The position numbers were made by a program, and so were the translations under genes. The notes beneath the pieces were generated by a model. It was given only the letters and a program-made list of their open reading frames with translations. It ran no database searches and was not told the origin of the DNA. A stretch of 64,000 nucleotides of DNA from Candidatus Aenigmatarchaeota archaeon (GTDB lineage: Archaea; Aenigmatarchaeota; Aenigmatarchaeia; JACPZZ01), in the NCBI GenBank assembly GCA_016180965.1, contig JACPAF010000001.1, positions 10,111-74,110 of the forward strand, read 5' to 3'. Shown piece by piece: positions 6,328 through 59,828 of the stretch (within the stretch, counting starts at the first letter, position 1; each line of letters opens with the position of its first letter).

Positions 6328-6367
6328 AACTGAAACAGATGCATACCAATAGCATCTGTTTCTAGTT
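6328..6367. repeat. tRNA-linked bulged palindromic hairpin (family copy)
   Basis: AACTGAAACAGATGC-ATACCAATA-GCATCTGTTTCTAGTT. The 3' end lies 5 nt (GCGAC) before tRNA-Lys +1. Confidence 0.8.
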
Positions 6368-6372
6368 GCGAC

Positions 6373-6469
6373 GGGCCCATAGCTCAGCCTGGTAGAGCAC
6401 CTGACTCTTAATTGAACTTTTGTTCATCGAGATATCAGGGAGTCGCGAGTTCAAATCTCGCTGGGCCCA
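6373..6469 (+). tRNA. tRNA-Lys-CTT: tRNA-Lys(CTT) with canonical 37/38 intron (6411-6433, 23 nt)
   Basis: Acceptor GGGCCCA/TGGGCCC, D arm GCTC..GAGC, anticodon arm CCTGA-CTCTTA|intron|A-TCAGG, T arm GCGAG-TTCAAAT-CTCGC. BHB has 3 of 4 central pairs. Confidence 0.9.
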
Positions 6470-14777: not shown

Positions 14778-14844
14778 AACAATAAAATAGCCTCCGGAGA
14801 GATATTAATAAACTTTCCTTTAGAAAAGAAACAAATGACAGACC

Positions 14845-14881
14845 GAAACGGACGCATACACAATGACGTCCGTTTCTAGTT
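14845..14881. repeat. tRNA-linked bulged palindromic hairpin (family copy)
   Basis: GAAACGGACG-CATACACAATGA-CGTCCGTTTCTAGTT, ending 6 nt before tRNA-Thr +1. Confidence 0.75.
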
Positions 14882-17567: not shown

Positions 17568-17671
17568 TGCGGTTACCGGGATTCGAACCCGGATTAAAAG
17601 CTGTCTCCGTTTTCCCCAAATTCAAGGAAAAGGCATGGGAAGCTTTTGTCCTGCCATTAGACCATAACCGC
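17568..17671 (-). tRNA. tRNA-Gly-CCC: tRNA-Gly(CCC) with canonical 37/38 intron (17603-17635, 33 nt)
   Basis: Reverse complement: GCGGTTA..AAAGC-TTCCCA|intron|A-GCTTT..CCGGG-TTCGAAT-CCCGG-TAACCGC-A. BHB central helix TTCC/GGAG with 3-nt bulges. Confidence 0.9.
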
Positions 17672-17897: not shown

Positions 17898-18356
17898 ATG
17901 GTCTGGTTTGTAAGAAAGAAACTCGATGCGGCGCCAATTGAACCAAGCCTATCTATGGAAAGTGAACAGGCTTTGATGACGCCAGAACCGATGCCGAAGC
18001 CTGTGATTGAAACGCCCCCGATGCGAGAAGCTCCACTGTTTATTAAAGTCGACCGTTACAAGGAAATGCTTTCTTATTTTGGTGCTCTGAAGAACGACAT
18101 AGAGACGTTGCGGCAGTTAAGCTCGGTTTTAAACAGCACCCAGGAAATGTTCATGGAAACGAACAAAGCGATAAGTTCTACTCTGGAAAGAACGGATAAG
18201 ATCTTGGAATCGCTGGACTCGGAAATGGGTCGTCCTGCTGGCTTGAACATAAACATGGACGCAGAGGCCAAAAGGGCGGAAATGAAGGTTTCTTTAAACG
18301 AACTGAAAAACCAGCTGGAAAAGCTAAAAAGCGAAGTCAGGTCAATTTCATCCTAA
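17898..18356 (+). CDS. Hypothetical coiled-coil protein
   Basis: Start set at the ATG at 17898, about 25 nt downstream of a TATA-like AAATTTATATTA. Heptad-rich C-terminal half. Confidence 0.5.
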   Translation: MVWFVRKKLDAAPIEPSLSMESEQALMTPEPMPKPVIETPPMREAPLFIKVDRYKEMLSYFGALKNDIETLRQLSSVLNSTQEMFMETNKAISSTLERTDKILESLDSEMGRPAGLNINMDAEAKRAEMKVSLNELKNQLEKLKSEVRSISS

Positions 18357-18409
18357 CTTATTAATATTTCTGAAGCAAACAGATGCTAAGTAAACTGAAT
18401 CATCGGTGG

Positions 18410-18490
18410 CTAGAAACATACGCTTAACAGCTAGAAGCATACCGTATACTGTATCGGTATGCTTCAGTTTACGACGCGTATGTTTCAGTT
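18410..18490. repeat. Nested pair of family hairpins upstream of tRNA-Leu
   Basis: Outer CTAGAAACATACGC...GCGTATGTTTCAGTT encloses inner CTAGAAGCATACCGTATACTGTATCGGTATGCTTCAGTT (18431-18469). Confidence 0.8.
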
Positions 18491-18512
18491 TCTCGATGAT
18501 TCTAACTGTAAC

Positions 18513-18733
18513 GCGGGGGTAGCCAAGCCCGGTCAAACTTGAGTGATGAGGTTAAGAAAACTGGCGCAACAACAAACTGACACATACATAGTATGTGTCT
18601 GGTTGCAATGCGCCTGTCTGAACAACCAATGACTAGAGGCGTCAGACTCAAGTTGAACTTTAGAAAAAAGTTTGATAGAAGAGGGAAATCTGATCTCCTA
18701 GCGAGTTCGTCGGTTCAAATCCGGCCCCCCGCA
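18513..18733 (+). tRNA. tRNA-Leu-CAA: tRNA-Leu(CAA) with D-loop intron (approx 18538-18635/7) and 37/38 intron (18653-18687)
   Basis: Exons join to GCGGGGGTAGCCAAGCCCGGTCAAA(GA)GGCGTCAGACTCAAGATCTGATCTCCTAGCGAGTTCGTCGGTTCAAATCCGGCCCCCCGCA, a typical archaeal class II tRNA-Leu. The D-loop intron has BHB core GTCA(18532-35)/TGAC(18630-33) with 3-nt bulges. Confidence 0.8.
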
Positions 18734-18821
18734 CTTTCCTTTCACTGAAAAAGCCATATTTAAACCTTGCAGAAACTCATTATTCAGTGAAAACTCAGAT
18801 AGAGTTGCGGAATTGGTGTCC

Positions 18822-19904
18822 ATGAAAGCATACCTAGGCTATTCGGTTGTCGGCGTGTTTGCGTTTAACCCAGCCGGCGCGCTATTGGACAAGGAGTTTT
18901 TCAAGAAAGACGCGAAACAGATCTCCATCAAATTAAACAACGTAAAAAACGAATTCCTGGACGAAGAACTTGTATTACTTAGAAGACTTGCAAAGAAAGG
19001 CGTAAACGAATTTTTCGGTGCATATCCCAAATCAGGCGAGTTCCAAATTGACCGCGATCCCGAATCTTTGGGCGAAAACAAAGCCAAAGGCGTTTTTCGT
19101 GAAATTGCGCTCACGGATAAGTGGGTTGTTTCGCAGGCCGAATTAAATAAAATCCTGTCAAGCGTCGGATCTGAGAGTTCCAAAGAAGAACTGCGCAACG
19201 TAGAAAAGGATAAAATAGGCATGCGCGTTGTCGGAATGATAGACGAGTTCAGCAGGAACATAAATACGCTTTCAGAACATTTGCGCGAGTGGTACGGTCT
19301 TTACTTCCCGGAGATCAACGGGCTGCTGAAGGACAATGAAAAATTCGTAATTTTCGTGGCGGATAAGACATTGCGCGGAAATTTTGAGCGCGACGGCAAG
19401 AAGTTAGACATAGAAACCGCCGGCATGGAATTCGACGAGAATGATTTAGAAAGCGTGAAACAAGCCGGTTTGACATTAAAACAAATGTATGTTGAGCGCA
19501 GGAATTTGGAAAATTATCTTGAAATACTGGGCAAAAAAATAATGCCGAATATGTCTGCAGTCGCAGGCGCATTGTTAGCGTTCAGGCTAGTATCACAGGC
19601 GGGCGGGTTGGATAAGATTGTAAAACTACCGTCGTCCACAATACAATTGCTCGGTGCCGAGAAAGCTTTATTCAGGTTTTTAAAGAAGCAGGGCAAGGCT
19701 CCGAAACACGGCATAATTTTCTACCATCCTGCCGTAATTTCAGCGCCGATACCAATACGCGGAAAAATAGCGCGTATTGTTGCGTCGAAAATAACCATGG
19801 CGGCAAGGATTGATTTCTATTCCGGCAACGACAAAAGTGCGGCTATGAAAGAAGAGTTGAACCATCTGGTAAATAATGCTTTGGCGCATTTTAGGGAAAA
19901 GTAG
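18822..19904 (+). CDS. nop5: Nop5 (Nop56/58) C/D box sRNP protein
   Basis: About 360 aa. NOP domain (LLGAEKALFRFLK...PKHGIIFYHP). Immediately upstream of fibrillarin. ATG at 18822; the track ORF starts at a TTG at 18813. Confidence 0.9.
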   Translation: MKAYLGYSVVGVFAFNPAGALLDKEFFKKDAKQISIKLNNVKNEFLDEELVLLRRLAKKGVNEFFGAYPKSGEFQIDRDPESLGENKAKGVFREIALTDKWVVSQAELNKILSSVGSESSKEELRNVEKDKIGMRVVGMIDEFSRNINTLSEHLREWYGLYFPEINGLLKDNEKFVIFVADKTLRGNFERDGKKLDIETAGMEFDENDLESVKQAGLTLKQMYVERRNLENYLEILGKKIMPNMSAVAGALLAFRLVSQAGGLDKIVKLPSSTIQLLGAEKALFRFLKKQGKAPKHGIIFYHPAVISAPIPIRGKIARIVASKITMAARIDFYSGNDKSAAMKEELNHLVNNALAHFREK

Positions 19905-19912
19905 TTGGTCAG

Positions 19913-20569
19913 ATGAAGTTAAAGGAAATTTTTCCGGGAGTCTTCCGTATAGACGGCCAGCTGGCTACAAAAAACCTGGTTAATGGAAGATCGTATTCCG
20001 AAAAAATAATAAAAATCAACGGCGAAGAGTACAGGACCTGGAACCCTGAAAAATCCAAAGCTGCTGCAGCAATTGAACGCGGGATAAAAAATTTCCCGAT
20101 AAATAAAGGCTCAAAAATCCTATATCTCGGGATTGCACAAGGCCAGACGGCTTCTTATTTTTCCGACATAATAGGCAACGACGGAATAATTTACGGGGTC
20201 GAATTTTCGGCGCGCGCGGTTAGCGATCTTGTCATCGCGTGTGAAAAAAGGGGAAATATAGTCCCCATAAAAGCGGACGCACGCAAGCCCGAGGATTATT
20301 CCTGGGTCGAAAAGGTCGACGTAATCTACGAAGATGTCGCGGATTCGGAACAAGTCGCTATATTGCTAAGGAACGTTGAGGCGTTCCTGAAAAAGGGCGG
20401 TTATGCAATGATAGGCATAAAGTCGAGAAGCATAGACGTAACGAAAGACCCAAAAAAGATTTTCGAAGAATCCCTGTCTGCCATAAAGGAAAAGATGGAA
20501 ATACTTGACTATGTTACTCTCGATCCGTTTGAAGTCGATCACGCATTTATAGTATGCAAATTAAGTTGA
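19913..20569 (+). CDS. flpA: Fibrillarin-like rRNA/tRNA 2'-O-methyltransferase
   Basis: 218 aa. EYRTWNP..SKAAAAI, ILYLGIAQGQTASY, VYGVEFS motifs. Confidence 0.9.
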   Translation: MKLKEIFPGVFRIDGQLATKNLVNGRSYSEKIIKINGEEYRTWNPEKSKAAAAIERGIKNFPINKGSKILYLGIAQGQTASYFSDIIGNDGIIYGVEFSARAVSDLVIACEKRGNIVPIKADARKPEDYSWVEKVDVIYEDVADSEQVAILLRNVEAFLKKGGYAMIGIKSRSIDVTKDPKKIFEESLSAIKEKMEILDYVTLDPFEVDHAFIVCKLS

Positions 20570-25260: not shown

Positions 25261-28113
25261 TTACGGTTTTACCAGATCAAACCCGAGGAAAATCTTCACG
25301 CCTTCAAACTCCAATGTATCCGAATTACCGTGTTCGCCGTATTCTATTTTCGCTGCGCCAACTGACTTCATTATTGTTTCTTCCCATTTTCTCAATGACC
25401 GCTCGGTTTTTGGATCGGAACGGATGAACAGCAAGATCGATTCGCCCACTTCCAGTTTTTTATCCTTTCTCATTGTTTGCACCTTGCGGACCAATTCCAT
25501 TACCATGCTTTCCTCGATAAGTTCGGCGTCCATGCGTACGTCCAGGAATATTTCCGTACCGCCCGCGGATTTTGATGCCATGTCCTTCTGCGGGTGAGGA
25601 GAAAATAACAATTCTTTTACGTTTCCGGAGTTCTTTATCACATTCACCGCGCCTTCGGATATGCTGTTCTTTTGCACAGAATCGTTTTCTTGTATAACCG
25701 CCTTTCTAAGGGGCCAGCGCAACCTGACGCTGTTCTCCTGCCGCAGCGCGTTTATGGATTCCACGGCCGAACGGACAAATTCCATTTCATCCTCTATATT
25801 GGAACTCGCGCCCCCATTGGATTCGGGCCAATCCTCAAGATGCACCGATTCCTTTTTGCCTGAAACCGATTGGTAGATTATTTCAGAGATGAACGGGCAT
25901 ATTGGAGCTAATACCAACACGAGCTTGCCAAAAACGTAATACATAGTGTAGAACGCAGCGTTTTTATCCGCGCCCTCGTATGTAGGCCACGCACGGTCTC
26001 GGATTAAACGAATGTACCATCTGCTGAAATCTTTCAATACGAAATCCCGAATTAACCGGACGGATTCCGATGCATTGTACGATTCGTTGCTTTTTTTGCA
26101 CGCCGCGACGACATTGTTTATCCTGGATATTATCCATTCGTCTTCAAAATTCAATTTATCGGGTTTGGGGACTTTTTTGCAGTACGACTCCATGAATGAG
26201 AAACTGTTCCACAATGTGTTCATGATATTCATGGATTCTTTTACCGATTCCATGTTAAACGCGAAATCTTCGCCCGTCGGCAGGCCCAAAAGGTACAGCC
26301 TCAAAGCATCTCTACCGTATTTTTCTATGACCTCCTCGGGCGTTATTACATTTCCCTTTGACTTGGACATTTTCGCGCCCTTCAAATCCAAAACCTTGCC
26401 GTGCAGGAGGACATTCTTGAAAGGCGTTTTGCCGAACGTAATCATGCTTGTTATTATCTGGGAATTCCACCAGCCTCGGAATTGGTCGGGCCCTTCTATG
26501 TTCAAATCCGCGGGCCATTTTTCCTTGAATGTTTTTTCGTCTTTCGGAAACCCTATCGAAGCCCATGACGCGACTCCGGAGTCGAACCATACATCAAGCA
26601 CGTCGGGTATGCGTTTCATTTTATTTCCGCACGTGCACTTGAAAAAAACTTCATCGATGTAAGGCCTGTGCAAATCCTCGATTTCGACATTGAGCTCTTT
26701 GGACGAGCCTATGACACGAACGCTGCCGCATTTTTCGCATTCCCATATCGGAAGCGGTATACCCCAATATCTCTGCCGGGATATGGGCCAGTCGCTCAGC
26801 GTGTTTAACCAACTGTCAAAATTATTCGATGCGAATTGCGGATACCAATTGACTTTCTTATTTTCTTCGATAAGTTTTTCACGTATCGCGCTCACGCGAA
26901 AAAACCATTGCGGAACCGCGATAAATAACAATGAAGAATCACAGCGCCAGCATTTCGGGTATTCGTGCGTCGTCGGCTCGACAGCGAACAACGCATTCTT
27001 TTCCCTGAGTTTTTCTATAATTTCCTTGTCAGCGTCTTTTGCGAACATGCCTTCCAACCAACCGGCCTCCGATTTAAATTTACCTCCCATAGTCAGCGGG
27101 GATAAAACGGGTAGGCTGTGTTTCATGCCTACGAGAAAATCTTCCTTTCCGTGTCCGGGAGCCATGTGAACCAGGCCCGTGCCTTCTTCCAATGTAACGT
27201 GCTGGTCAGACGGTACGACACGACCGACGATATTTTTCTGCAACGGCAAATCGTTTAACGGGTTATCATACTCCATCCCTACTAATTGGCTGCCTTTAAT
27301 GGTTCCGATAATTTCGAAATATTCTGTTTTGCCAACGAGAACTTTCTCGGCAAGCTCTTTTGCCAGGATTAATACATCCTTGCCGGACTTTGCGCGAACG
27401 TAATCGTAATTCGGGTTGACCATGATTCCCGTGTTTGACGGCAGAGTCCACGGAGTTGTTGTCCATATTAACAGGCTGTCGTTGCTGTTTTTCACCCTGA
27501 ATTTCACATAAACCGAGTTGTCGCGTACTTCTTTGTGTTCTATTTCGTTGAACGCCACAGCGGTTTCACAATGAGGGCATACATGGACCGGATAAGAACC
27601 TTTGTAGAGCAACCCGTTTTCGAAACCTTTCTTGAACGTGAACCAAGCGCCTTCTATATAACTTTTGCTCAATGTCAAATACGGATTATCCCAATCCATC
27701 CACACGCCCAAATTTTTAAATTGGTCGTTCATTATACCCATGAATTTTGTCGCGAATTTTTTGCATTCTTCATTGAATTTCCCTATCCCGAATTTTTCGA
27801 TGTCCGACTTCGTCCTAAAGTTAAGCTCTTTTTCGATTTTATTTTCTATCGGCAATCCGTGCGTATCGTAGCCCGGTTGCATCGAAACTTCATAGCCTAA
27901 CATGCTGAAAAACCGTATGAAAAAATCCTTCAGCGTTTTGTTCATGGCTGTTCCGAGATGTATGGAACCTGTTGCGTAGGGCGGGCCGTCGAGGAAATAG
28001 TATTTTTTTGCGCCTTTCCTATTTGAAGCGTACTTCCGAAAAATATCGGATTTTTTCCATGAATCCATTGTCTGCTTTTCCAGTTCCAGCGGATTGTAGG
28101 GCCCTCTTTTCAT
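25261..28113 (-). CDS. ileS: Isoleucyl-tRNA synthetase
   Basis: 950 aa. PPYATGSIHLGTAMNK (HIGH), DWPISRQRYWGIPLP, KMSKSKGN. Confidence 0.9.
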   Translation of the reverse strand: MKRGPYNPLELEKQTMDSWKKSDIFRKYASNRKGAKKYYFLDGPPYATGSIHLGTAMNKTLKDFFIRFFSMLGYEVSMQPGYDTHGLPIENKIEKELNFRTKSDIEKFGIGKFNEECKKFATKFMGIMNDQFKNLGVWMDWDNPYLTLSKSYIEGAWFTFKKGFENGLLYKGSYPVHVCPHCETAVAFNEIEHKEVRDNSVYVKFRVKNSNDSLLIWTTTPWTLPSNTGIMVNPNYDYVRAKSGKDVLILAKELAEKVLVGKTEYFEIIGTIKGSQLVGMEYDNPLNDLPLQKNIVGRVVPSDQHVTLEEGTGLVHMAPGHGKEDFLVGMKHSLPVLSPLTMGGKFKSEAGWLEGMFAKDADKEIIEKLREKNALFAVEPTTHEYPKCWRCDSSLLFIAVPQWFFRVSAIREKLIEENKKVNWYPQFASNNFDSWLNTLSDWPISRQRYWGIPLPIWECEKCGSVRVIGSSKELNVEIEDLHRPYIDEVFFKCTCGNKMKRIPDVLDVWFDSGVASWASIGFPKDEKTFKEKWPADLNIEGPDQFRGWWNSQIITSMITFGKTPFKNVLLHGKVLDLKGAKMSKSKGNVITPEEVIEKYGRDALRLYLLGLPTGEDFAFNMESVKESMNIMNTLWNSFSFMESYCKKVPKPDKLNFEDEWIISRINNVVAACKKSNESYNASESVRLIRDFVLKDFSRWYIRLIRDRAWPTYEGADKNAAFYTMYYVFGKLVLVLAPICPFISEIIYQSVSGKKESVHLEDWPESNGGASSNIEDEMEFVRSAVESINALRQENSVRLRWPLRKAVIQENDSVQKNSISEGAVNVIKNSGNVKELLFSPHPQKDMASKSAGGTEIFLDVRMDAELIEESMVMELVRKVQTMRKDKKLEVGESILLFIRSDPKTERSLRKWEETIMKSVGAAKIEYGEHGNSDTLEFEGVKIFLGFDLVKP

Positions 28114-28194
28114 AGGTGGTCACCGAACGAATAAAATAAATGGGATGAGTTTAGATTAATCTTTGACAATTCGACTAAAAAACTGGATTTGCCG

Positions 28195-28280
28195 ACTGAA
28201 GCATACCGTATACTGAATAGGAAACCTTGGTTTCCTATTTGAGAAAACCGTAGGTTTTCTCAATATCGGCATGCTTCTGG
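28195..28280. repeat. Free-standing composite hairpin element (family arms enclosing two extra hairpins)
   Basis: ACTGAAGCATACCGTATAC...ATATCGGCATGCTTCTGG arms enclose ATAGGAAACC-TTGG-TTTCCTAT and GAGAAAACC-GTAG-GTTTTCTC. Lies between divergent ileS and the PilT-like ATPase, with no tRNA nearby. Confidence 0.7.
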
Positions 28281-28355
28281 CTGCGCATCATCCGAATCAA
28301 GATGATTTGGCTTATAAAATATAAATATAGCGAAAAACATCACTTCTCAGATACA

Positions 28356-30155
28356 ATGAAAAAATGGGTGCCGGATACTTCTGTTCTGATTAATGGAAAA
28401 CTGGCTAATCTTGTTGAGACGAACCAGGTTGAGGGAGAGATTATTATTCCCGTCACTGTGATCGATGAATTGCAGGCGCAGGCCTCGCGAGGCAAGGATA
28501 TAGGTTTCCAGGGGCTGGAGCAGTTAAAATCCGTGCGCGTGATGGCCGAAAGCGGAAAAAAGATAAAATTAATATACACGGGACGCAGGCCGACCATGGA
28601 AGAAATAATGATGGCCAAGAAAGGGCGATTAGATGCGTTAATACGCGATGTCGCAAAAGAAAACGCAGCCACGCTGATAACCGCGGATTATGTGCAAGCG
28701 CTCGTGGCGGAAGCAGAGGGCGTTTCAGTCATGTACATACAGAACGTGCGCTCGACAAGCCCGATTAAACTGGAAGACTTTTTCGATGAAAACACTTCCT
28801 CCGTCCACTTAAAGGTTGATGTTTTGCCGATGGCGAAAAAAGGGAAACCCGGACAGGTTAAACTGCTAAAAATACGCGACACGCCCATGAAAGAGGAGGA
28901 GATAGAATCGATCGTAAAGGAAATATTGGACCGTGTAAGGCACGAAAAAAACGCGTTCATCGAAATGGGTTCTGCGGGCGCGATGGTAATACAATTTGAC
29001 AAGTACAGGATTGCCGTGGCGCGCCGGCCTTTCAGCGACGGGTTAGAGCTGACTGCTGTCAGGCCGATAACCAAGCTCGTGCTTTCTGATTACAAACTTT
29101 CCGAAAAATTAATGGACCGCTTAAAAGAGCGTGCGGAAGGCGTAATTATCTGCGGGCCGCCGGGTTCCGGAAAATCCACGTTCGCCGCTTCAATCGCGGA
29201 ATATTACCTGTCTCTTGACAAGATCGTAAAGACCATTGAAAACCCAAGGGATTTGCAGGTACCTCCTGAAATAACTCAGTACGGCGCGCTGGACGGGAGT
29301 ATGGAGAAAACAGCTGACATACTGCTGTTGGTAAGGCCGGATTACACGATTTATGATGAAGTGCGAAAAACCAAGGATTTCGAATTGTTCGCTGACATGC
29401 GCATGGCGGGCGTTGGAATGGTTGGCGTGGTTCATGCGTCGAATGCGATCGATTCCGTGCAAAGGTTCATAGGCAGGATAGAAATGGGCATGATAACGAG
29501 TGTTCTGGACACGATAATATTCCTTAAGGGCGGGGAGATTAAAAAAGTTTACGAATTGCAGCTGCTTGTGCGGGTGCCGACGGGCATGATGGAAGCGGAT
29601 TTGGCCCGACCGCTGATAGAAGTGCGCGATTTTGAGACCGGCAGATGCGAGTATGAAATATACACGTACGGCGAGGAGAACGTGGTTGTTCCTGTCAATG
29701 AGACTAGCAAAGAACAGCCTGTCAGGAAATTGGCCAAAGAAAGGATATTGCAGGAGATTAGAAAGTTTGATCCGCAGGCCGAAGCTGAGGTCGTGAGCGA
29801 CAATAAAGTGATAGTCCGCGTGGATAATGAAATGGTTCCGCATATCATCGGCAAAGAGGGTAAAACCGTGATGGAGCTTGAGAAGAAGCTTGGCATATCC
29901 ATTGATATTGAGCCTTTAGCGAAGAACATGGGAAAACTTGTTTCACACAACATATCCGAATCAGGCGCATACTTGAATATTGGGTTTGATACAAGGTTAT
30001 CAGGCAAGGTTGTTTCCGTTTATGTGGACGACGAATTTTTATTATCCGCCACGGTCGGCTCGAAGGACGTAATAAAAGTTTCCAAGGACTCCGATATAGG
30101 ATCAGCTTTGATGCGGGCCGCCGTAAACAAGAAAAAAATAAAATGTTACATGTAA
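28356..30155 (+). CDS. PIN-domain / PilT-type ATPase / KH-domain protein
   Basis: Start at the ATG at 28356. N-terminal PIN-like (VPDTSVLING). Walker A GPPGSGKST. C-terminal KH-like IIGKEGKTVMELEKKLG. Confidence 0.8.
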   Translation: MKKWVPDTSVLINGKLANLVETNQVEGEIIIPVTVIDELQAQASRGKDIGFQGLEQLKSVRVMAESGKKIKLIYTGRRPTMEEIMMAKKGRLDALIRDVAKENAATLITADYVQALVAEAEGVSVMYIQNVRSTSPIKLEDFFDENTSSVHLKVDVLPMAKKGKPGQVKLLKIRDTPMKEEEIESIVKEILDRVRHEKNAFIEMGSAGAMVIQFDKYRIAVARRPFSDGLELTAVRPITKLVLSDYKLSEKLMDRLKERAEGVIICGPPGSGKSTFAASIAEYYLSLDKIVKTIENPRDLQVPPEITQYGALDGSMEKTADILLLVRPDYTIYDEVRKTKDFELFADMRMAGVGMVGVVHASNAIDSVQRFIGRIEMGMITSVLDTIIFLKGGEIKKVYELQLLVRVPTGMMEADLARPLIEVRDFETGRCEYEIYTYGEENVVVPVNETSKEQPVRKLAKERILQEIRKFDPQAEAEVVSDNKVIVRVDNEMVPHIIGKEGKTVMELEKKLGISIDIEPLAKNMGKLVSHNISESGAYLNIGFDTRLSGKVVSVYVDDEFLLSATVGSKDVIKVSKDSDIGSALMRAAVNKKKIKCYM

Positions 30156-30211
30156 TTTTATCCCGCACTCCGAAACTGTCATTTTATTAGGGTTTCCGAC
30201 GAAATAATATC

Positions 30212-30736
30212 ATGATAGAAGACTTGGGCAAAAAACAATTTATCCCGGTTTCCAGGCTAGTCGTTATTGCTGCAATGGTTGCCATGGTCATCCTGGTCGG
30301 CAACGGCGTAACCGGATTTACAACTTCTTTGATAAAACTTCAGGAGGCCGCGGCAAACTCAACCCATACGACTGCCGTGCTACAAGACCTGCAAAAGCAG
30401 GCTGGGGAATGCACGAACACGCTTAACTCAACGTCCCAGTTGTTTAATTCCTGCAGAATAGAACTGGAGGATAAAAAATCCGAGAACTCCAGGCTTTCAA
30501 CCGAGACTTCCGTGCAGGAAAAAAACATAACAATTTACGTGAACACGATAACGACGCTGCAGCGCGAATTACAAAGACTAACGAGCCTGTCGGACAGCAT
30601 GGCAGTCAGCATCTGCTGCCTCAGGCGGTATGTGCTGGAGGATGATTCCCTGAGATACTATTATATCCAGGACAACAAAACGTTCTGCGTAAGCCAACCG
30701 GAAGATATTCTAGCCACGAAAGAATTCTCCTGCTGA
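30212..30736 (+). CDS. Membrane-anchored coiled-coil hypothetical protein
   Basis: 174 aa. One TM, then heptad-rich and Cys-containing C-terminal part. Confidence 0.5.
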   Translation: MIEDLGKKQFIPVSRLVVIAAMVAMVILVGNGVTGFTTSLIKLQEAAANSTHTTAVLQDLQKQAGECTNTLNSTSQLFNSCRIELEDKKSENSRLSTETSVQEKNITIYVNTITTLQRELQRLTSLSDSMAVSICCLRRYVLEDDSLRYYYIQDNKTFCVSQPEDILATKEFSC

Positions 30737-30770
30737 GGAAAAAATTAGTATTTAACCGCACGCGATCTAG

Positions 30771-30928
30771 CTAGAAATATGTGTTGACAGTAGCACATAT
30801 TTCAGTTAGTAGCTGAAAACAGTCACATACAAGATGTGACTGTTTTAGTTGTAGCTAGAAACATATGAATACCAATTGCATATGTTTCAGTTAGTTACAG
30901 CTAGACTCATACTTCGTATGAGTCAGTT
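30771..30928. repeat. Tandem array of four family hairpins directly upstream of tRNA-Arg
   Basis: H1 30771-30807, H2 30813-30850 (opposite bulge polarity), H3 30855-30892, H4 30901-30928. Flanks AG|CTAGA / CAGTT are conserved, stems differ but stay complementary. H4 ends 7 nt before tRNA +1. Confidence 0.85.
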
Positions 30929-30935
30929 TACAACA

Positions 30936-31051
30936 GGATCCGTAGCTCAGCCTGGACAGAGCAGCAGCCTCCTAACGAGCTTTTCCAAAAAGCTCGACCA
31001 AAAGAGAATGGAGATAGTTGAAGGTCGCGGGTTCAAATCCCGTCGGATCCG
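30936..31051 (+). tRNA. tRNA-Arg-CCT: tRNA-Arg(CCT) with canonical 37/38 intron (30975-31015, 41 nt)
   Basis: GGATCCG..GCAGC-CTCCTA|intron|A-GTTGA..GCGGG-TTCAAAT-CCCGT-CGGATCC-G. BHB core CTCC/GGAG. Confidence 0.85.
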
Positions 31052-31126
31052 TTGATAAAAGCGCATGTTCTGGTTTTGGCGGGCTACAATATATTATATA
31101 TCGCAAAAACGGCAAATCTTAAACCA

Positions 31127-39526: not shown

Positions 39527-40162
39527 GTGTGCCCGAATAATTCTATCAAACTTGATCCCAACAAGGACGTACTAAAAGCTAGATTGTGCGGTTTTTTGGC
39601 TGCCGACGGCAGCGTTTTCATAAGAAAGGAGACCAGAACAGGAAAAATTCACCACTCTATGAGATTTTACCCTGACAACTTAGTACTAGCTCAACTTTTC
39701 AATGACGTGCTAAAAGGCGTTTACGGCAGAGAGGCGGCGATAAAGAGTATGGGAAATTATTACGCTCTATCTTTAACTAGCAAACAAGCTGTCACAGATC
39801 TTTTATCGATAGCCAGTTTCACGTCCAAAGGTTGGACATTTCCTGAAACCATTGTTACCAAAGATGCAAAAATCGAGTGGCTAAGAGCTTATTTTGATTG
39901 TGATGGTTATGTTGGTAAAAAATACATCCAGCTGCAATCGGTCAATGAAAACGGTATAAAAGTGATACAAAAACTGTTAGAAGATTTCGGAATAGAGTCC
40001 AAAATATACGATTATACGAGAAAGAACAAGTCCTGGAACATAAATTATCTGCTGAACATAAACAAGAGGGAAATGCGTATTAAATTTTTGAGAGAAATAG
40101 GGTTCAATCACCCATTAAAAAGGAAGAAATTGGAAAGTTTAATCAATGCCGAGGTCGCATAA
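39527..40162 (+). CDS. Free-standing double-motif LAGLIDADG homing endonuclease-like protein
   Basis: 211 aa, GTG start. Two LAGLIDADG motifs (LCGFLAADGSVF, LRAYFDCDGYVG). The last 15 nt overlap the 5' end of tRNA-Ser. Confidence 0.75.
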   Translation: MCPNNSIKLDPNKDVLKARLCGFLAADGSVFIRKETRTGKIHHSMRFYPDNLVLAQLFNDVLKGVYGREAAIKSMGNYYALSLTSKQAVTDLLSIASFTSKGWTFPETIVTKDAKIEWLRAYFDCDGYVGKKYIQLQSVNENGIKVIQKLLEDFGIESKIYDYTRKNKSWNINYLLNINKREMRIKFLREIGFNHPLKRKKLESLINAEVA

Positions 40163-40990: not shown

Positions 40991-41824
40991 TCATTCCCAA
41001 AATTCCTTGATTATTTCCTCGGATATCCGCGTTATGACGCGCTCAGGCACGAAAATTTCCATTGAAATGGTCTTGCCGTATTTTATTTTTTTCAATTCTT
41101 TCACGGTCCTGCGGAAATCTATTGACGCGATCCCGACCGGCAGGTGCTCGTCCATTTTCCCGTGGTTGTCGTGCATGTGTATGTGCTGGATGCGTTTACC
41201 GAATTTTTTGATGTGGTTCGAAATAGATTTCATGCCTCCGCCTATGAACGCATGGCCGATGTCAAGATTCACAGCGAGCCCGTCGACTTTTGAAATTATT
41301 TTTTGGAAGTCCTTTATCGATGACATTTCTGTGGTGTTTTCCAACATCACGACCATCGAATCACCGGCGTAATCCACCAGCTTCTTCATGTTCTCGATGT
41401 AGTTTGATATAACCTCTTTCAGCGTGCCGCGATCCGATAGCATCATGCTCTGCGAATGTGCGTGGAAAGTTATTTTTTCTATATTTATCCTCTTTCCCGC
41501 GTCTATGACCTTTTTACATTCTTCTAACCACGCGTCGCGCACTATTTCGTGCGGGCTGCCAAGATCTATCCACCACGCCGCGTGCCCGAGCGCGAACATC
41601 CTATGTTTTTTGATTATCCTGTTTATTTTGCCCGCCCTATTCGCGATTATTTTCGGCGACCCTTCCGGCTCCTCAATCCCGATTTCTACGAAATCAAAAT
41701 TAAGCGCCGCGATTTCACGTATTTCCTGCATCAAGTCCAATGAGGGATTTGTAGTTGTGCCGAACTTTGGCAGGCCTGGTTGATTGAAACGCATCTTGGA
41801 TGCGTTTCTGTCTGTCTCTACCAT
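40991..41824 (-). CDS. Sugar phosphate isomerase/epimerase (xylose-isomerase-like TIM barrel)
   Basis: 277 aa. FVEIGIEEPE, ITFHAH, LENT, NLDIGHAF, IHMHDNHG metal-site pattern. Confidence 0.7.
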   Translation of the reverse strand: MVETDRNASKMRFNQPGLPKFGTTTNPSLDLMQEIREIAALNFDFVEIGIEEPEGSPKIIANRAGKINRIIKKHRMFALGHAAWWIDLGSPHEIVRDAWLEECKKVIDAGKRINIEKITFHAHSQSMMLSDRGTLKEVISNYIENMKKLVDYAGDSMVVMLENTTEMSSIKDFQKIISKVDGLAVNLDIGHAFIGGGMKSISNHIKKFGKRIQHIHMHDNHGKMDEHLPVGIASIDFRRTVKELKKIKYGKTISMEIFVPERVITRISEEIIKEFWE

Positions 41825-41888
41825 GGAATTAGTTCTCCTAAAGCCAATTTAAATAGAAGCCTACAAAACGGTTTGTTCGGTATGTTGC

Positions 41889-41978
41889 AACAGACGCTTG
41901 GAGTATGCGTCTGTTTCGGTCAACCGCTGAATCATATGCATTTGGGAACTAGACTCGTATGATAGTATGAGTCTTGTT
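41889..41978. repeat. Two family hairpins upstream of tRNA-Val(CAC)
   Basis: AACAGACGC-TTGGAGTAT-GCGTCTGTT (41889-41915) and CTAGACTCGTATGA-TAG-TATGAGTCTTGTT (41949-41978). The latter ends 5 nt (ACGAC) before tRNA +1. Confidence 0.75.
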
Positions 41979-41983
41979 ACGAC

Positions 41984-42056
41984 GGGTCCATGGTCTAGTG
42001 GTTAGGACGTCGCGTTCACATCGCGGAGATCGCCGGTTCGAATCCGGCTGGACCCA
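41984..42056 (+). tRNA. tRNA-Val-CAC: tRNA-Val(CAC), intronless
   Basis: GGGTCCA..TCGCG-TTCACAT-CGCGG..GCCGG-TTCGAAT-CCGGC-TGGACCC-A. Confidence 0.9.
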
Positions 42057-42066
42057 ATAGTCGATT

Positions 42067-42102
42067 GAAGCATACCGATACAATCATAGGCATGTTTCTA
42101 GT
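42067..42102. repeat. Family hairpin (imperfect) downstream of tRNA-Val(CAC)
   Basis: GAAGCATACCGATA-CAATC-ATAGGCATGTTTCTAGTT. A further CTGAAACTTTCTT-CA-AAGAAAGTTTGTT hairpin lies at 42109-42136. Confidence 0.65.
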
Positions 42103-42759: not shown

Positions 42760-42971
42760 CTGGCAGACTGATGCATATCTCGGATATGCGTCTGATCGTA
42801 ACCGCCCTTTTGTGATCAAAAGCGCTGGCGGAAAAAAATAATTATACGAATGCGTGTAAACAGGAAACGTTAGGCTGTGGGAAAGCAAGTTTTGTAATAC
42901 AAAACTGCTGCAGTTTATCTGAAGATAAACTTGCAAACCTCAGGTTTTCGTGGTCGACTGACGCAGAGGTA

Positions 42972-43012
42972 AACTGAAGCATATCGATAGTGCATACGGT
43001 ATGCTTCCAGTT
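42972..43012. repeat. tRNA-linked bulged palindromic hairpin (family copy)
   Basis: AACTGAAGCATATCG-ATAGTGCATA-CGGTATGCTTCCAGTT, ending 5 nt (GTGAC) before tRNA-Ala +1. Confidence 0.8.
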
Positions 43013-47611: not shown

Positions 47612-49063
47612 ATGAAATTGGCTCTATTTGGTATCATTTTGGCTGTGATAGTTTCTGGTTGTACGGGTACAGGTGATTCAGGCAACACAGGAACAGGCGG
47701 ATCGGTTATCATAAAATCATTTTCTGCCGACGAAACAAATTTACAAGGCAACGACAGGACAACGCTTTCAACTGAAATTATCAACACAGGAGACTCAAAA
47801 GCCACCGCTGTTAAAATACAATTATTAGATTTGGATACGGCTTGCGCGCAACCTTCATGCGATTCGACGGAAACACAGTGGGGGTTGTCCAGCGGAAAGA
47901 CGAGCGATGTACTCACCGATTTGAGGATAAACACGCCGGGTGAAGAGGCCATAGCAAAACAATACAACTGGCGCGTGCAATCGCCAAAATTGCCGGCTAA
48001 TTTGCCACAGACCTACGATGCCAAAGCGAGAGTTTCATTCGGATATTCGACCACAGCTATCAAACAAATAAAAATTGTCACCCTATCTGAATACCAGAGG
48101 TTAAAAACGAACGGACAGACGTTGCCTGTTACTACAGCACAGCCGTCTAACGGGCCTTTAAAGATCGACGTAAGAGTGGCAGAGCCCGTCAGGATTGAAG
48201 AGGGTTCCACTACGTTCTTGCTTGTCATTGAAGTTACTAACCTGATTGGCGGAACCACGTTCCTGGCCGATAACCCGAACGACGTGTCAAAATGGAACCT
48301 GGCCAATTTGAAATTAACGCTTCCTTCAGGGCTTGCGATGGCAGAAACGAGCGGGGATTGCGCAGCCATCACAAGCAGCGTCACCATCGAGCTTTCAAAG
48401 GGCAAAAGTTACAAAACGCAATGCGAAGTCAAGACCACAACAAACATCCCGGTTTCGGTGGACAAGACCGTCAACGTTAAAGCTGATTACGGGTACTTTG
48501 TCGAATCCAAACTGTCCGTGCCTATATCGGTTATAGGAAAATCCAATTATGTCCCGCCTTCGGGCGGCGGTGCACCAGGACAGGCCGGAACAGGCACAGT
48601 AACACCTCCCGCGTCCGGCGGCTCAACTGCACCGGATACCGAACCGCCTAACACGGTTAGAAATATACAAGTCCAAAAATTCGCAGGACAACCCGGAACA
48701 GCGAGCGCGGGCAAGTGGCAATACACAATAAGTTTCCTCGAGCCATCCGACAATGTGGGCGTTGCGGGTTTTGAAATATATGTAGGCACAATCCAGCCAG
48801 CCACAGGAACTTGGAATACTGCTACTCTGGATGCCAGCAATGAAGTTAAGAAACAAGGCCTTGCATCCAATATACCGCTCGGTTCGAGAACACCTCAAGG
48901 AGGAACTGTGGAATCATTCCCACCCAACGGCGTGGCTAGATTGCTTTTAGATCCGAATACATCATATTGGATAGGCATTCTTGCTGTGGATGCCAGTGGA
49001 AACAGGGGAGACTTGTCAACATCCGCGGGTTCTGTAATCCAAATACAAACAGGTTCTTTCTAG
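47612..49063 (+). CDS. Putative lipoprotein with CARDB-like domains, Pro/Gly linker and FN3-like C-terminal domain
   Basis: 483 aa. MKLALFGIILAVIVSGC signal. STEIINTGDSKATAVKIQLLD. Linker PPSGGGAPGQAGTGTVTPPASGG. C-terminal VRNIQVQ...FEIYVG...YWIGILAVDASGNRG. Confidence 0.6.
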   Translation: MKLALFGIILAVIVSGCTGTGDSGNTGTGGSVIIKSFSADETNLQGNDRTTLSTEIINTGDSKATAVKIQLLDLDTACAQPSCDSTETQWGLSSGKTSDVLTDLRINTPGEEAIAKQYNWRVQSPKLPANLPQTYDAKARVSFGYSTTAIKQIKIVTLSEYQRLKTNGQTLPVTTAQPSNGPLKIDVRVAEPVRIEEGSTTFLLVIEVTNLIGGTTFLADNPNDVSKWNLANLKLTLPSGLAMAETSGDCAAITSSVTIELSKGKSYKTQCEVKTTTNIPVSVDKTVNVKADYGYFVESKLSVPISVIGKSNYVPPSGGGAPGQAGTGTVTPPASGGSTAPDTEPPNTVRNIQVQKFAGQPGTASAGKWQYTISFLEPSDNVGVAGFEIYVGTIQPATGTWNTATLDASNEVKKQGLASNIPLGSRTPQGGTVESFPPNGVARLLLDPNTSYWIGILAVDASGNRGDLSTSAGSVIQIQTGSF

Positions 49064-50337
49064 AATTTTTGTTTTGCGAATTCGCCCAGGCCTTTCTGCC
49101 CTGATTTTTGCATCTCAAACGAGCCTTCGAACAACGGAACTCCGTAGACGCCGTCGTAGCCCGGCTTAAATTTTAGCTCCCCATTACGCGATTTTATTAT
49201 TGCGTTTGCGATTTTTTCGTGCGTGATCTTTTTTAACTCGTTTTCAGGGACGTTCATCAACACGTTTAACTCTGTGCCAAATTGCGAGATTATTTTATCG
49301 TGTTCTTCGGTGACTTTTTTAGAGTATAATGCGTTGACACCGGTGACGTGCGATATTATCTCATACAACGGCAATAATGTTTTGAATGGTATCGCGTTTT
49401 TAGGAACAAAACCAACAGGACGGTCGGCTAATTGTTCAACACGACTGAGAACGCCTATTGTTAATCCCCGTTTGCAGCGCGGGCAAATACCATTTAATTT
49501 TTTTGTTTCAGACGGCTCTAAAGAAACGTTACAGTCTTTGTGGCCATCTAAATGGTATTTTCCATAATTCGGGTCGCACTCAATTGTATATAAAAACTTT
49601 TCCTTGTCCTTGTTTTTTATTGCATCGAAGATTTTGTTGTATGTGGGGTTTTCAATATCAAATACGTTCGCCTCTCTTCCTAACCTCCAAGGCCATGGTG
49701 AATGTGCGTCGGAATTTGAGATTAATGCAAACTTGTCCAAACTTGAAATGTTCCAGCACATCGCGGGATCCGCTGATAGGCCTGTTTCGATCGCGAAAAT
49801 GTTTTTTGTCTGATCCTGAAAACATTCTTCCACTGAGTTAAAACCGGATTTCGAACCGAAAATTGAAAACCATGGCGTAAACGAATGGGCTGGTATGATA
49901 AATGCATCTTTAGATATTGACACCACCAGTTCTGTAAATTCCGGACAGGTTATGTTTGTTAATATCGGACGTCCGTCTGCGGAAAGGTTTCCGTATCTGC
50001 TTAATTTTTCATTAATTTGGTCTACGATTTCGAAACTTGGAGCGAAAATCATGTTGTGGACTTTTTTGCTCACGCCGTTGACATAGTAAATCAGCGAAAC
50101 TTCCGATGTCAGCATAAAAGCTGTTTTCGTTTTGTTGTCCGTGAACAATCCCGTGCCATTAATTTCCTTCAATGAAGATTTCAAATCTTCCAAATGTTTC
50201 GGGTGTGTGAAATCGCCTGTTCCGAGAATGTCCAAGCCTTTCGTTTCTGCGAATTTTCCAAGCGTGTGTATGTTCATCTGGGGTGATGTGGCGCGGCTGT
50301 ATTTCGAATGTATCTGGAGGTCTGCGATAATTTTCAT
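49060..50337 (-). CDS. endoQ: Endonuclease Q-like PHP-domain nuclease with zinc ribbon
   Basis: Start moved to the ATG at 50337 (MKIIADLQIHSKYSRATSPQM...GTGDFTHP). CPRCKRGLTIGVLSRVEQL zinc ribbon. The 37 extra N-terminal codons in the track ORF overlap tRNA-Ile. Confidence 0.7.
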   Translation of the reverse strand: MKIIADLQIHSKYSRATSPQMNIHTLGKFAETKGLDILGTGDFTHPKHLEDLKSSLKEINGTGLFTDNKTKTAFMLTSEVSLIYYVNGVSKKVHNMIFAPSFEIVDQINEKLSRYGNLSADGRPILTNITCPEFTELVVSISKDAFIIPAHSFTPWFSIFGSKSGFNSVEECFQDQTKNIFAIETGLSADPAMCWNISSLDKFALISNSDAHSPWPWRLGREANVFDIENPTYNKIFDAIKNKDKEKFLYTIECDPNYGKYHLDGHKDCNVSLEPSETKKLNGICPRCKRGLTIGVLSRVEQLADRPVGFVPKNAIPFKTLLPLYEIISHVTGVNALYSKKVTEEHDKIISQFGTELNVLMNVPENELKKITHEKIANAIIKSRNGELKFKPGYDGVYGVPLFEGSFEMQKSGQKGLGEFAKQKF

Positions 50338-50372
50338 AGAGAATATTCCTTTGCCAGATGTAAAAATAGAAG

Positions 50373-50574
50373 TGGGCCCGACCGGATGATCGGCTGACAC
50401 ATCGCAGCTAGGCACACACAAGATGTGTGCCGATTTGCCGTGTGTCAAGCTTTCGAACCGGCGACCATGCCGTTGCTATCCATTGCAATTACGGCGTCTA
50501 CGCAGCTTAGTTTCGCAAGCAAATGCTTGCGGGCCTTATAAGACCGTCGCTCTACCAAGCTGAGCTACAGGCCC
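50373..50574 (-). tRNA. tRNA-Ile-TAT: tRNA-Ile(TAT) with three predicted introns (38/39: 50496-50535; variable loop: 50467-50489; T-loop 59/60: 50387-50451)
   Basis: Reverse complement gives GGGCCTG-TA-GCTC-AGCTTGGTA-GAGC-G-ACGGT-CTTATAA|40 nt|GCCGT-A|23 nt|GGTC-GCCGG-TTCGAA|65 nt|T-CCGGT-CGGGCCC-A. BHB cores: TTAT/GTAG (two G.U), GCCG/CGGC (perfect), TTCG/CGAT (3 of 4). Confidence 0.7.
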
Positions 50575-50586
50575 ACTTTGTCGACC

Positions 50587-50622
50587 GAAGCATACCGATA
50601 CAGTATACGGTATGCTTCTAGT
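50587..50622. repeat. Family hairpin just 5' of tRNA-Ile (minus-strand sense)
   Basis: GAAGCATACCGATACAGTATACGGTATGCTTCTAGTT. The reverse complement of 50588-50622 is identical over 35 nt to 18431-18465. An additional ACTGGCG..CGCCAGT hairpin lies at 50633-50657. Confidence 0.85.
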
Positions 50623-50731
50623 TGTAACTAAAACTGGCGATTTTTGAATGCGCCAGTTTCTATTTACCACGCTTTAATCATTTTTTACGCAAGCTTAAAA
50701 AGATAAAAGCACGCCGTCTCATTGTAAATGT

Positions 50732-56436: not shown

Positions 56437-56563
56437 AAAACCGAAGGATTTCTATTTGAGAAAATCCAAAGATTTTCTCAAAAATGTAGTATAATTTTTA
56501 GTAATTTCCTCGTTACCCGGCGATTAATAAAGTATATATTGGTAGAAAGCAAAATCTACATTA

Positions 56564-59761: not shown

Positions 59762-59828
59762 ACAAAAAACAGTTAAGCCGGGAAACACAATAAAAATATG
59801 GGATAATTTGATCAAACTAAACTCTTTG

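Follow-up and report, generated by a model that had tools for sequence, protein, structure and literature searches.

A tRNA-linked family of nesting palindromic repeats in a lineage of Aenigmatarchaeota

A stretch of 64,000 nucleotides from a Candidatus Aenigmatarchaeota archaeon (contig JACPAF010000001.1, positions 10,111 to 74,110; hereafter the window) contains a 35-base hairpin, CTAGAAGCATACCGTATACTGTATCGGTATGCTTC, at 18431-18465 on the plus strand and again at 50587-50621 on the minus strand. This 35-mer is the consensus, or master, copy of a family of palindromic repeats and its best-conserved variant. The family is present in many copies and spans species, is linked to tRNA genes, nests within itself, is swapped or present and absent between related loci, flips its orientation and supplies tRNA intron sequence. 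On balance it is probably a non-autonomous repeat of this archaeal lineage that resembles the repetitive extragenic palindromic (REP) elements and is copied and homogenised as DNA. The family is apparently undescribed; no description of it was found in the literature on hairpins and repeats of the DPANN archaea and Aenigmatarchaeota.

With up to three mismatches allowed, the 35-mer was found twice in the window, against 0.00 matches expected from 100 dinucleotide shuffles. An earlier note on this DNA had reported the identity over 35 nt at two loci; the identity stands, but the minus-strand copy had been placed one base off, at 50588-50622. The 35-mer is preceded by cag and followed by agt at one locus and by caa and ggt at the other, and the identity stops at its ends. 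Since the identity is confined to the 35-mer, which as the note held does not belong to a longer duplicated segment, segmental duplication was rejected as the source of the pair. Both copies lie upstream of a tRNA and in the same orientation relative to it, as had been observed, but this does not extend to the family, which is found both ways and whose loops flip independently of the flanks. At a third locus, 28198-28215, the note had seen the first 18 nt of the element followed by divergence. The 18 shared nt are there, but they are positions 4-21 of the 35-mer, and rather than diverging the loop is split by a 52-nt insert after which the 3' arm resumes as CGGCATGCTTC, ending at 28277, with the split loop residues kept on both sides. 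The variable family that the note had placed around the 35-mer was recovered with R1, a covariance model built from the family alignment, which gives 15-16 distinct members in the window at a cut-off of E<0.05.

The distribution of the master hairpin was obtained from an exact scan for GAAGCATACCG-N3-16-CGGTATGCTTC in one genome per species. The scan returned 36 copies in seven Aenigmatarchaeota metagenome-assembled genomes (MAGs), none of which is the window's genome, with up to 12 copies per genome. The master is thus not a two-copy element, and the identical pair in the window is the commonest form of a conserved variant. All 36 copies have a loop of 9-10 nt related to TATACTGTAT or its reverse complement; TATACTGTAT itself is the commonest loop (9 of 40 copies), and the major loop variants ACTG/CAGT and GCTG/CAGC are both common to several genomes. 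Six bacterial matches were rejected as unrelated hairpins that match by chance and have other loops, and so was a link to viral contigs, where the three matches are unrelated hairpins of 61% GC with a different loop and flanks. The closest relatives of the window are groundwater Aenigmatarchaeota (DPANN) MAGs. In the genes they have in common, DNA identity to the window is 74-81% for the species representatives in the first scan and averages about 83% for the closest syntenic relative, L045 (loci outside the window carry L numbers; L036 and L045 are from the same MAG). Syntenic loci were compared from at least five species, and L043, one of two short contigs from a metagenome scan with Nop5, was used in the comparison of leaders. 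In relatives down to 48% Nop5 identity, nests of the family type are present and the master stem is absent.

Recent copying or mobility, gene conversion and strong sequence-specific constraint such as a protein binding site had all been offered for the identical pair. A simple recent local duplication is excluded because the same stem-loop occurs in at least eight species. Copying or conversion between loci is supported: the master sequence is located at different, non-orthologous loci in different genomes, and orthologous sites hold different hairpins. Sequence-specific constraint or homogenisation is needed as well, with 32 nt kept identical across genomes that have only 74-83% identity in their common genes. 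The co-varying stems, and the copies within tRNA introns and the variable arm, make a binding site for a protein on double-stranded DNA unlikely. Target-site duplications, which the note had suggested looking for, were seen at none of the clean filled-versus-empty sites.

The master hairpin has an 11-bp stem, GAAGCATACCG/CGGTATGCTTC, and a 10-nt loop, TATACTGTAT. In the family as a whole the stem has 11 bp with the consensus GAARCAnnnSS, the foot CT(A)G...C(T)AG is conserved, and the loop is A/T-rich, 9-12 nt long and roughly ATAC..ATA, a subfamily with GACnCATAC stems having 3-nt loops. Short conserved linkers, ACAGCTA on the 5' side and AGTTTAC on the 3' side or the reverse complement, bring the repeat from about 35 nt (the hairpin) to about 50 nt. 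In an alignment of 26 simple members, changes on both sides were seen at 6 of the 11 stem pairs; as these members were chosen for pairing, their being 100% paired holds by construction. The stem is fully Watson-Crick in 31 of 40 copies. About 14 of 37 copies share one two-level element in which the central 55 nt or so are conserved and the outer family stem has a different sequence at every locus, with the pairing always kept. The orientations of flank and loop are independent of each other, the four combinations being represented by 6, 8, 8 and 11 copies.

Imperfect pairs on the tRNA-sense strand are G-U in seven cases versus A-C in two (p = 0.18, an underpowered comparison), and the folding z-scores are -6 to -9. 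The lean towards G-U, the U-G foot of the second master copy and the greater stability of the leader on the sense strand favour a constraint on the hairpin at the RNA level. DNA-level events are favoured by the two orientations in the same place, the loop flips, the copy between divergent promoters, the copies between convergent genes and the 31 of 40 perfect stems. The two sets of observations are compatible.

Comparison of syntenic loci showed replacement, nesting, insertion and flipping of hairpins. Near-identical flanks in the tRNA-Thr leader enclose CCGAAACGGACG..CGTCCGTTTCTAG (GAAACGGACG..) in the window and the master hairpin in L045; at the same leader L050 has a third sequence and L046, L055 and L056 are without a hairpin. 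In the tRNA-Leu leader L045 has a single simple hairpin, GAATCATACCG-atacaaaata-CGGTATGATT, the apex of which holds two extra tiers (74 nt) in the window; the outer tier of the window has this simple hairpin (CTGAATCATACCG-atacaaaata-CGGTATGATTTTAG) as its counterpart at the orthologous site, and in L043 the master stem encloses yet another hairpin. The D-loop of the L045 tRNA-Leu carries a 41-nt hairpin insert with the stem GAAGCATATC, located precisely between GGTCAA and ACTTGAG and absent from all five other loci (the window, L043, L046, L048 and L050). An 88-nt composite hairpin of the window (28196-28280) is 93% identical to L036:6284-6367, a non-orthologous site with unrelated flanks. 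On either side, the foot is exactly where the shared sequence stops; the orthologous spacer in L045, from the same MAG as L036, is without the composite. In the variable arm of the orthologous tRNA-Leu(UAG) genes of L008 and L039, the flanks have the same orientation and the loops are exactly reverse-complementary (ATACAATATA vs TATATTGTAT), which is an inversion in place.

The hairpins are strongly associated with tRNA genes. In the window, 14 of the 15 R1 loci counted are inside a tRNA gene or no more than 200 nt away from one, and tRNA neighbourhoods make up 43% of the non-coding DNA (P ~4e-6 for uniform non-coding placement; ~1e-3 when each of the eight intergenic regions is taken as one event). 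The last stem of a leader ends 10-13 nt upstream of the tRNA 5' end, and the first stem of a trailer begins about 10 nt past the 3' end. A TATA-like box conserved between species is present upstream of the hairpins (cttattaatattt before the tRNA-Leu leader in all species), and the hairpins are therefore part of the pre-tRNA leader. The hairpin loops, at -33 to -22, were rejected as the tRNA TATA box, since the conserved box lies upstream of them and hairpin-free orthologues still keep it. Four of the 11 tRNAs of the window have no upstream hairpin. Outside the window, about a quarter of the master copies are near an intact T-arm vs a background of 5.6%; most of the remaining copies sit in gaps that range from a few nt to some tens of nt, often between convergent genes, a distribution that by analogy can be called REP-like. 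As regards the foot motif, CTAG is about 4-fold under-represented in the window (60 observed, 243 expected by base composition and 67 by a Markov model), and the surroundings of tRNA genes, 8.8% of the window, hold one third of the CTAG sites, for the most part in hairpin feet.

Modules of the family make up tRNA intron sequence as well as leader, trailer and spacer repeats. The clearest case is the two-level element at T-loop position 59/60 of a tRNA-Ile (50387..50451), with the outer stem GACACA/TGTGTC, the foot GCT(T)G..CAGC, the linkers CGGCAAAT and CTGCGA and the inner stem CGGCACACA/GTGTGTGCC. By the bulge-helix-bulge (BHB) geometry given for tRNA introns (PMC4090602), it is bounded by a near-canonical BHB made of the T-stem, the central helix UUCG/CGAU and the bulges AAA and CAU, and cuts after the second bulge nucleotide on each strand restore TTCGAAT. 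A homologous 59/60 intron with a fully canonical BHB is present in the tRNA-Leu of L046 and L050 and absent from that of the window, L045, L048, L055 and L056. In the leader copies and at nest junctions, the predicted folds have 1-nt bulges only and no 3-4-3 motif was found. The 35-mer copies themselves were rejected as BHB-bounded introns, as they are in 5' leaders, fold with 1-nt bulges and are inconsistent in orientation. We tentatively raise the possibility that a mini-palindrome mobile at the DNA level and favouring single-stranded loops is the vehicle of archaeal tRNA intron gain. A copy would become an intron when its foot and linkers complete a BHB, and the leader, trailer and spacer copies would act as a reservoir. 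It would enter the loops of copies already in place as well as tRNA loops (D, variable and T), and the elements might then be regarded as an analogue of the eukaryotic "introner" elements.

The D-loop intron of the window's tRNA-Leu (18537-18650) lies upstream of nop5 (18813-19904) and the fibrillarin gene (19913-20569). It begins with ACTTGAG, complementary to its own anticodon loop CTCAAGT, followed by a box C-like GTGATGA, and also holds CTGA and AATGA motifs; its predicted BHB has the central helix GGUC/GACU and the bulges AAA and AGA. It may be a C/D-box-like intron beside genes for C/D ribonucleoprotein proteins.

The members of the family in the window and the interrupted tRNA genes are listed in Table 1. 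The leader of tRNA-Leu forms a rod of three tiers with the first master copy at its apex; the middle tier wraps this copy, with TTAACAG and TTTACGAC as linkers. The folding energy of the leader as a whole is -53.2 kcal/mol (z = -8.9) and that of its opposite strand -47.7 kcal/mol; the tRNA begins 10 nt past the last paired base of the outer stem. The nested hairpins in the D-loop intron have no counterpart in the same intron of L043, L046, L050 and L055, and single or related ones are found in L048 and L056. In the second master copy, the foot pairs as U-G when read on the tRNA-sense strand, and the opposite strand would have a C-A mismatch there; the Ile-UAU tRNA starts 12 nt past the stem. 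The tRNA-Leu(CAA) and Ile-UAU-like genes have two to four large insertions each, and because of these multiple large introns both (2 of the 11 tRNAs of the window) were missed by ARAGORN and by the Rfam tRNA model. The composite element lies between the divergent promoters of the isoleucyl-tRNA synthetase (IleRS) and PIN-ATPase genes, and transcription is therefore not required for its persistence there. Variable-arm insertions comparable to that of tRNA-Ser(CGA) are present in tRNA-Ser(GCT) of L019 and in the tRNA-Leu(UAG) of L008 and L039. The stem of the master variant at 42974..43010 ends 10 nt upstream of tRNA-Pro.

Table 1. Positions in the window of the family hairpins and of the two tRNA genes with multiple introns.
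Feature	Position	Strand	Remarks
Opposite-foot family hairpin	6330..6365	+	CTGAAACAGATGC..GCATCTGTTTCTAG; stem ends 10 nt upstream of tRNA at 6373
tRNA-Thr leader hairpin	14843..14879	+	family hairpin
Outer tier of tRNA-Leu leader	18395..18505	+	GAATCATCG/CGATGATTC
Middle-tier family hairpin	18410..18488	+	stem GAAACATACGC/GCGTATGTTTC
Master hairpin copy 1	18431..18467	+	35-mer and AG of foot; foot CT(A)G..CAG
tRNA-Leu(CAA)	18513..18733	+	D-loop intron and anticodon-loop intron
Two nested family hairpins in tRNA-Leu D-loop intron	18561..18616	+	CTGGCGCA..TGCGCCtG around CTGACACATAC-ata-GTATGTGTCtGG
Composite three-way junction	28196..28280	.	master loop TATACTG^TAT split by two second-family hairpins, AATAGGAAACC.. 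and GAGAAAACC..
Four head-to-tail family hairpins	30771..30926	+	leader of tRNA at 30936; all in one orientation
Two-level element in tRNA-Ser(CGA) variable-arm loop	40221..40280	+	family insert
Three family hairpins upstream of tRNA-Val at 41984	41783..41976	+	41783-41810, 41887-41919, 41949-41976
Degenerate master-like hairpin	42064..42101	+	stem begins 10 nt downstream of tRNA-Val 3' end
Further trailer hairpin	42768-42794		after second tRNA-Val
Master variant GAAGCATATCG/CGGTATGCTTC	42974..43010	+	sense-strand U-G pair; opposite flank orientation
Multi-intron tRNA, Ile-UAU	50373..50574	-	anticodon loop CTTATAA
T-loop intron, position 59/60, tRNA-Ile	50387..50451	-	two-level family element
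Master hairpin copy 2, tRNA-Ile leader	50585..50621	-	foot CUA...GG
Second hairpin of tRNA-Ile leader	50628..50659	-	family hairpin AAACTGGCG..CGCCAGTTTtag

Among the proteins encoded in the window are archaeal Nop5 and fibrillarin, IleRS, an ATPase with an intein and a PIN-ATPase-KH protein. A second hairpin family that bears no relation to the first (nnAGGAAAnC - 3-5 nt loop - GnTTTCCTnn, and GAGAAAAnC...) was found at 28216-28263 and 56455-56482 of the window and at L046:19380-19470, L050:5400-5450 and L056:9640-9760, usually as adjacent pairs and sometimes as three-way junctions. The IleRS/PIN-ATPase spacer forms a three-way junction in the window and in L046 alike, with entirely different sequences. 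The tRNA at 6373-6469 was called tRNA-Ile(aat) by ARAGORN; its anticodon loop is CTCTTAA, followed by an intron at the canonical position, so that tRNA-Lys(CUU) is more likely. Two mechanical starts of open reading frames (ORFs), at 28302-28350 and 50373-50448, probably lie too far upstream: for the PIN-ATPase ORF a start past the ataaaatataaata promoter, as in L045, is most likely, and the 462-aa ORF (49060-50448) shares 75 nt with the tRNA-Ile gene.

Putative homing elements were noted as well. The tRNA-Gly(CCC)-like gene at L045:6621-7520, orthologue of the window tRNA at 17568-17671 on the minus strand, is interrupted by about 800 nt that comprise a LAGLIDADG/HTH_38 ORF (L045:6680-7423) and a complete second tRNA with the anticodon CCC on the opposite strand; the insert looks like a homing-endonuclease cassette bringing its own replacement tRNA. 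In the window, a free-standing LAGLIDADG endonuclease ORF at 39527-40162 (Pfam LAGLIDADG_3, E = 4e-19) overlaps with its 3' end the start of tRNA-Ser (40148), and L046 and L056 have similar ORFs close to tRNA genes. The T2SSE-type ATPase at 59808-63794 is interrupted by an intein (Intein_splicing and LAGLIDADG_3); the IleRS has an intein in L048 and L056 and none in the window. Given these inteins and tRNA-associated endonucleases, the lineage seems to be rich in homing elements.

If the family is a REP-like repeat copied as DNA, its copies would be made, replaced and homogenised at the DNA level via transposition or gene conversion, the sequence most plausibly being extruded as a single-stranded hairpin. 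They would land or survive in the loops of other family hairpins, in the D, variable and T loops of tRNAs and beside tRNA ends, and the short inverted arms would permit inversion of the loop in place. Persistence would be expected where the transcript is discarded, that is in 5'-processed leaders, trailers, introns removed at a BHB and the spacers at gene ends. The sole requirement at the RNA level would be that each insert keeps folding on itself, and the perfect or compensated stems would follow from it. From these patterns we infer movement at the DNA level, together with its intermediate and its enzyme.

Several results weigh against this reading. No recurrent transposase or nuclease was found by Pfam among the 67 proteins encoded next to master copies, and the flanking sequence, about 0.5 Mb, showed neither TnpA nor TnpB in intact form. 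The only HUH/Y1 trace, detected by tblastn with an approximate IS608 TnpA query, is a decayed IS200-like fragment in L014, and neither target-site duplications nor a defined insertion signature were seen. The conserved linkers, the spacing of about 10 nt to the tRNA and the 32-nt conservation across species could equally fit recognition by a factor of the host that binds or processes RNA. The lean towards G-U falls short of significance (p = 0.18), the exact-match search overstates the invariance of the stem, and template switching in situ could yield perfect stems and flips without transposition. The L014 fragment (L014:7830-7960, JACQNZ010000003.1) is a decayed Y1 N-terminus of the IS200/IS605 type (…VSIVFCPKYRRQSLVGKIKARLAEVI…) without a start codon, about 500 nt from a family hairpin and cut off by the end of the locus; a search with a 45-aa query gave no homologues.

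The main rival explanation is that the hairpins are RNA elements beneficial to the host, present in pre-tRNAs and at some mRNA 3' ends and bound by a protein that reads the foot, linkers and loop; they might mark or chaperone interrupted pre-tRNAs, position 5' or 3' processing or block exonucleases. This agrees with the conserved TATA-like box that puts the hairpins in the leader transcript, the near-constant spacing of 10-13 nt between stem and tRNA on both sides, the 7 to 2 excess of G-U over A-C on the sense strand, the conservation of the stem-loop sequence across eight species and the strongly negative folding z-scores. We nevertheless consider it doubtful. Both orientations occur at the same position relative to the tRNA and the loops flip, so that an RNA-binding protein would meet bulges on differing sides and differing loop sequences, and with the tRNA unchanged the tiers of orthologous leaders number from zero to three, or a hairpin is lacking altogether. 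Moreover, 4 of the 11 window tRNAs lack an upstream hairpin, one copy sits between divergent promoters, and the family matches no Rfam family. With Rfam 15, only tRNA was above the gathering threshold; a permissive search of 18300-18820 and 28100-31060 gave noise (E >=0.45, with scores less than half the gathering value). Also rejected were K-turn, C/D box, H/ACA box and small ribozymes, none fitting by eye and Rfam giving none. Quite improbable is the proposal that the tRNA splicing endonuclease excises the leader hairpins in the BHB manner and so sets them free as small RNAs, linear or circular. True BHB-bounded introns at T-loop 59/60 are indeed made up of family modules, and by eye the A-type nests allow a 4-bp AGCU/AGUU helix with a 3-nt bulge UAC beside the foot. 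The second bulge of the motif so drawn is, however, 1 nt, the predicted leader folds have 1-nt bulges only and no 3-4-3 motif, and reverse-oriented copies, of the wrong handedness, are equally frequent in leaders.

The repeats might also be immobile: old, vertically inherited quasi-palindromes that evolve fast in place by template switching during replication, with the likeness between loci arising by convergence. Arm-to-arm switching keeps stems perfect, flips loops and grows tiers; the 31 of 40 perfect Watson-Crick stems are in line with it, the loop inversion between L008 and L039 is its exact product, and spacers rich in hairpins, from several families unrelated to one another, are found across the class. 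Such a process cannot, however, give the same 32-35 nt at unrelated loci of eight genomes or the 88-nt composite, 93% identical, at non-orthologous sites, nor can it swap the master for an unrelated hairpin between near-identical flanks, and we hold this explanation to be unlikely. The near-perfect 32-bp palindrome, in which the direction of the central asymmetry would be irrelevant to a dimer, and the location of the loops at about -33 to -22 from tRNA 5' ends could finally suggest a double-stranded operator for a dimeric DNA-binding protein regulating tRNA genes. This seems highly improbable, because stems that differ and yet compensate point to selection for intrastrand pairing and not for a fixed half-site. 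Copies are also found in introns, the variable arm, trailers and between convergent genes, nesting puts half-sites 50-75 nt apart, and the conserved promoters lie upstream of the hairpins.

Among the closest known systems are the bacterial REP sequences and REPINs mobilised by the REP-associated tyrosine transposase (RAYT, or TnpA-REP; PMC3733652, PMC2817692, PMC3116915, PMC6006769). Like these, the family consists of imperfect palindromes of 20-40 nt in many extragenic copies with complementary stem changes, occurs singly or clustered and in both orientations, has G-T pairs hinting at transcription and "double-foot" forms, and shows no target-site duplication, no transposase of its own and vertical persistence within a lineage. 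Its size and copy number agree as well, with 15-16 members in 64 kb and 36 master copies in seven genomes, in intergenic gaps. Unlike them, it has an archaeal (DPANN) host, a strong linkage to tRNAs and a placement in tRNA introns, and forms nests or head-to-tail arrays where REPINs and bacterial interspersed mosaic elements are inverted doublets. Its foot is CT(A)G...C(T)AG with ACAG/GTAAA linkers, in contrast to the 5' GT[AG]G or CGTC tag of REPs. The GTAG or CGTC tag defines the bacterial REP super-families (PMC3733652); here the flanks have the consensus ACAGCTA...AGTTTAC, with GTAG in front of some copies only. REP systems have a cognate single-copy RAYT (HUH-Y1) gene, as a rule with the repeats on its flanks; no Y1 family appeared among the 67 neighbouring proteins, and the tblastn search gave only the decayed IS200-like N-terminus at L014:7830-7960.

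In the Thermoproteales, tRNA intron "transposition" (Fujishima et al. 2010, as related in PMC4090602) is of unknown mechanism, presumed to act at the DNA level. As described in that account, near-identical BHB-bounded introns are found in different tRNA genes at non-canonical positions including 59/60, and their presence varies between close species, as is the case here. The present family differs from those introns, as they are described there, in being also abundant outside tRNA genes without a BHB and in both orientations, which points to a DNA repeat able to become an intron rather than to a moving intron. The SDRs (small dispersed repeats) of Nostoc and other cyanobacteria, which Elhai and colleagues are said to have described in 2008, are reportedly a few tens of nt long, insert so as to extend or preserve hairpins, nest in one another and are present in structured RNA genes. 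They belong to another domain of life and have another sequence; we know of no link of SDRs to tRNA leaders or introns. The ends of IS200/IS605 insertion sequences and of their miniature derivatives, the palindrome-associated transposable elements (PATEs), share with the family subterminal hairpins on single-stranded DNA, the lack of inverted terminal repeats and of target-site duplications, and insertion beside short specific motifs. The target of IS608 is TTAC, and TTTAC follows the hairpin here. The elements of the window are about ten times smaller, with a single hairpin instead of distinct left and right ends.

Other classes were rejected. For a miniature inverted-repeat transposable element, there is no target-site duplication at clean sites, no parent insertion sequence was found, and the size is under the usual range. 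A CRISPR array was dismissed, as the units are individual palindromes with variable stems and have no regular repeat-spacer periodicity. The hairpins are not like intrinsic terminators because the stems are followed by AGTTTAC or TAGCTGT and no T-run, and most copies in the window lie between a promoter and a tRNA.

In the literature searched, small REP-type palindromic repeats are treated as bacterial, and it is explicitly stated that how archaeal tRNA genes came by their many non-canonical introns is unknown (PMC4090602). One family of this lineage is both extragenic repeat and tRNA intron sequence, and close genomes differ by single events of insertion, replacement and inversion, so that intron gain can be tested by comparative or population genomics and simple biochemistry. 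As such inserts hide tRNA genes from standard finders, the tRNA inventories of DPANN archaea are probably undercounted. These repeats may show how archaeal tRNA genes acquire introns.

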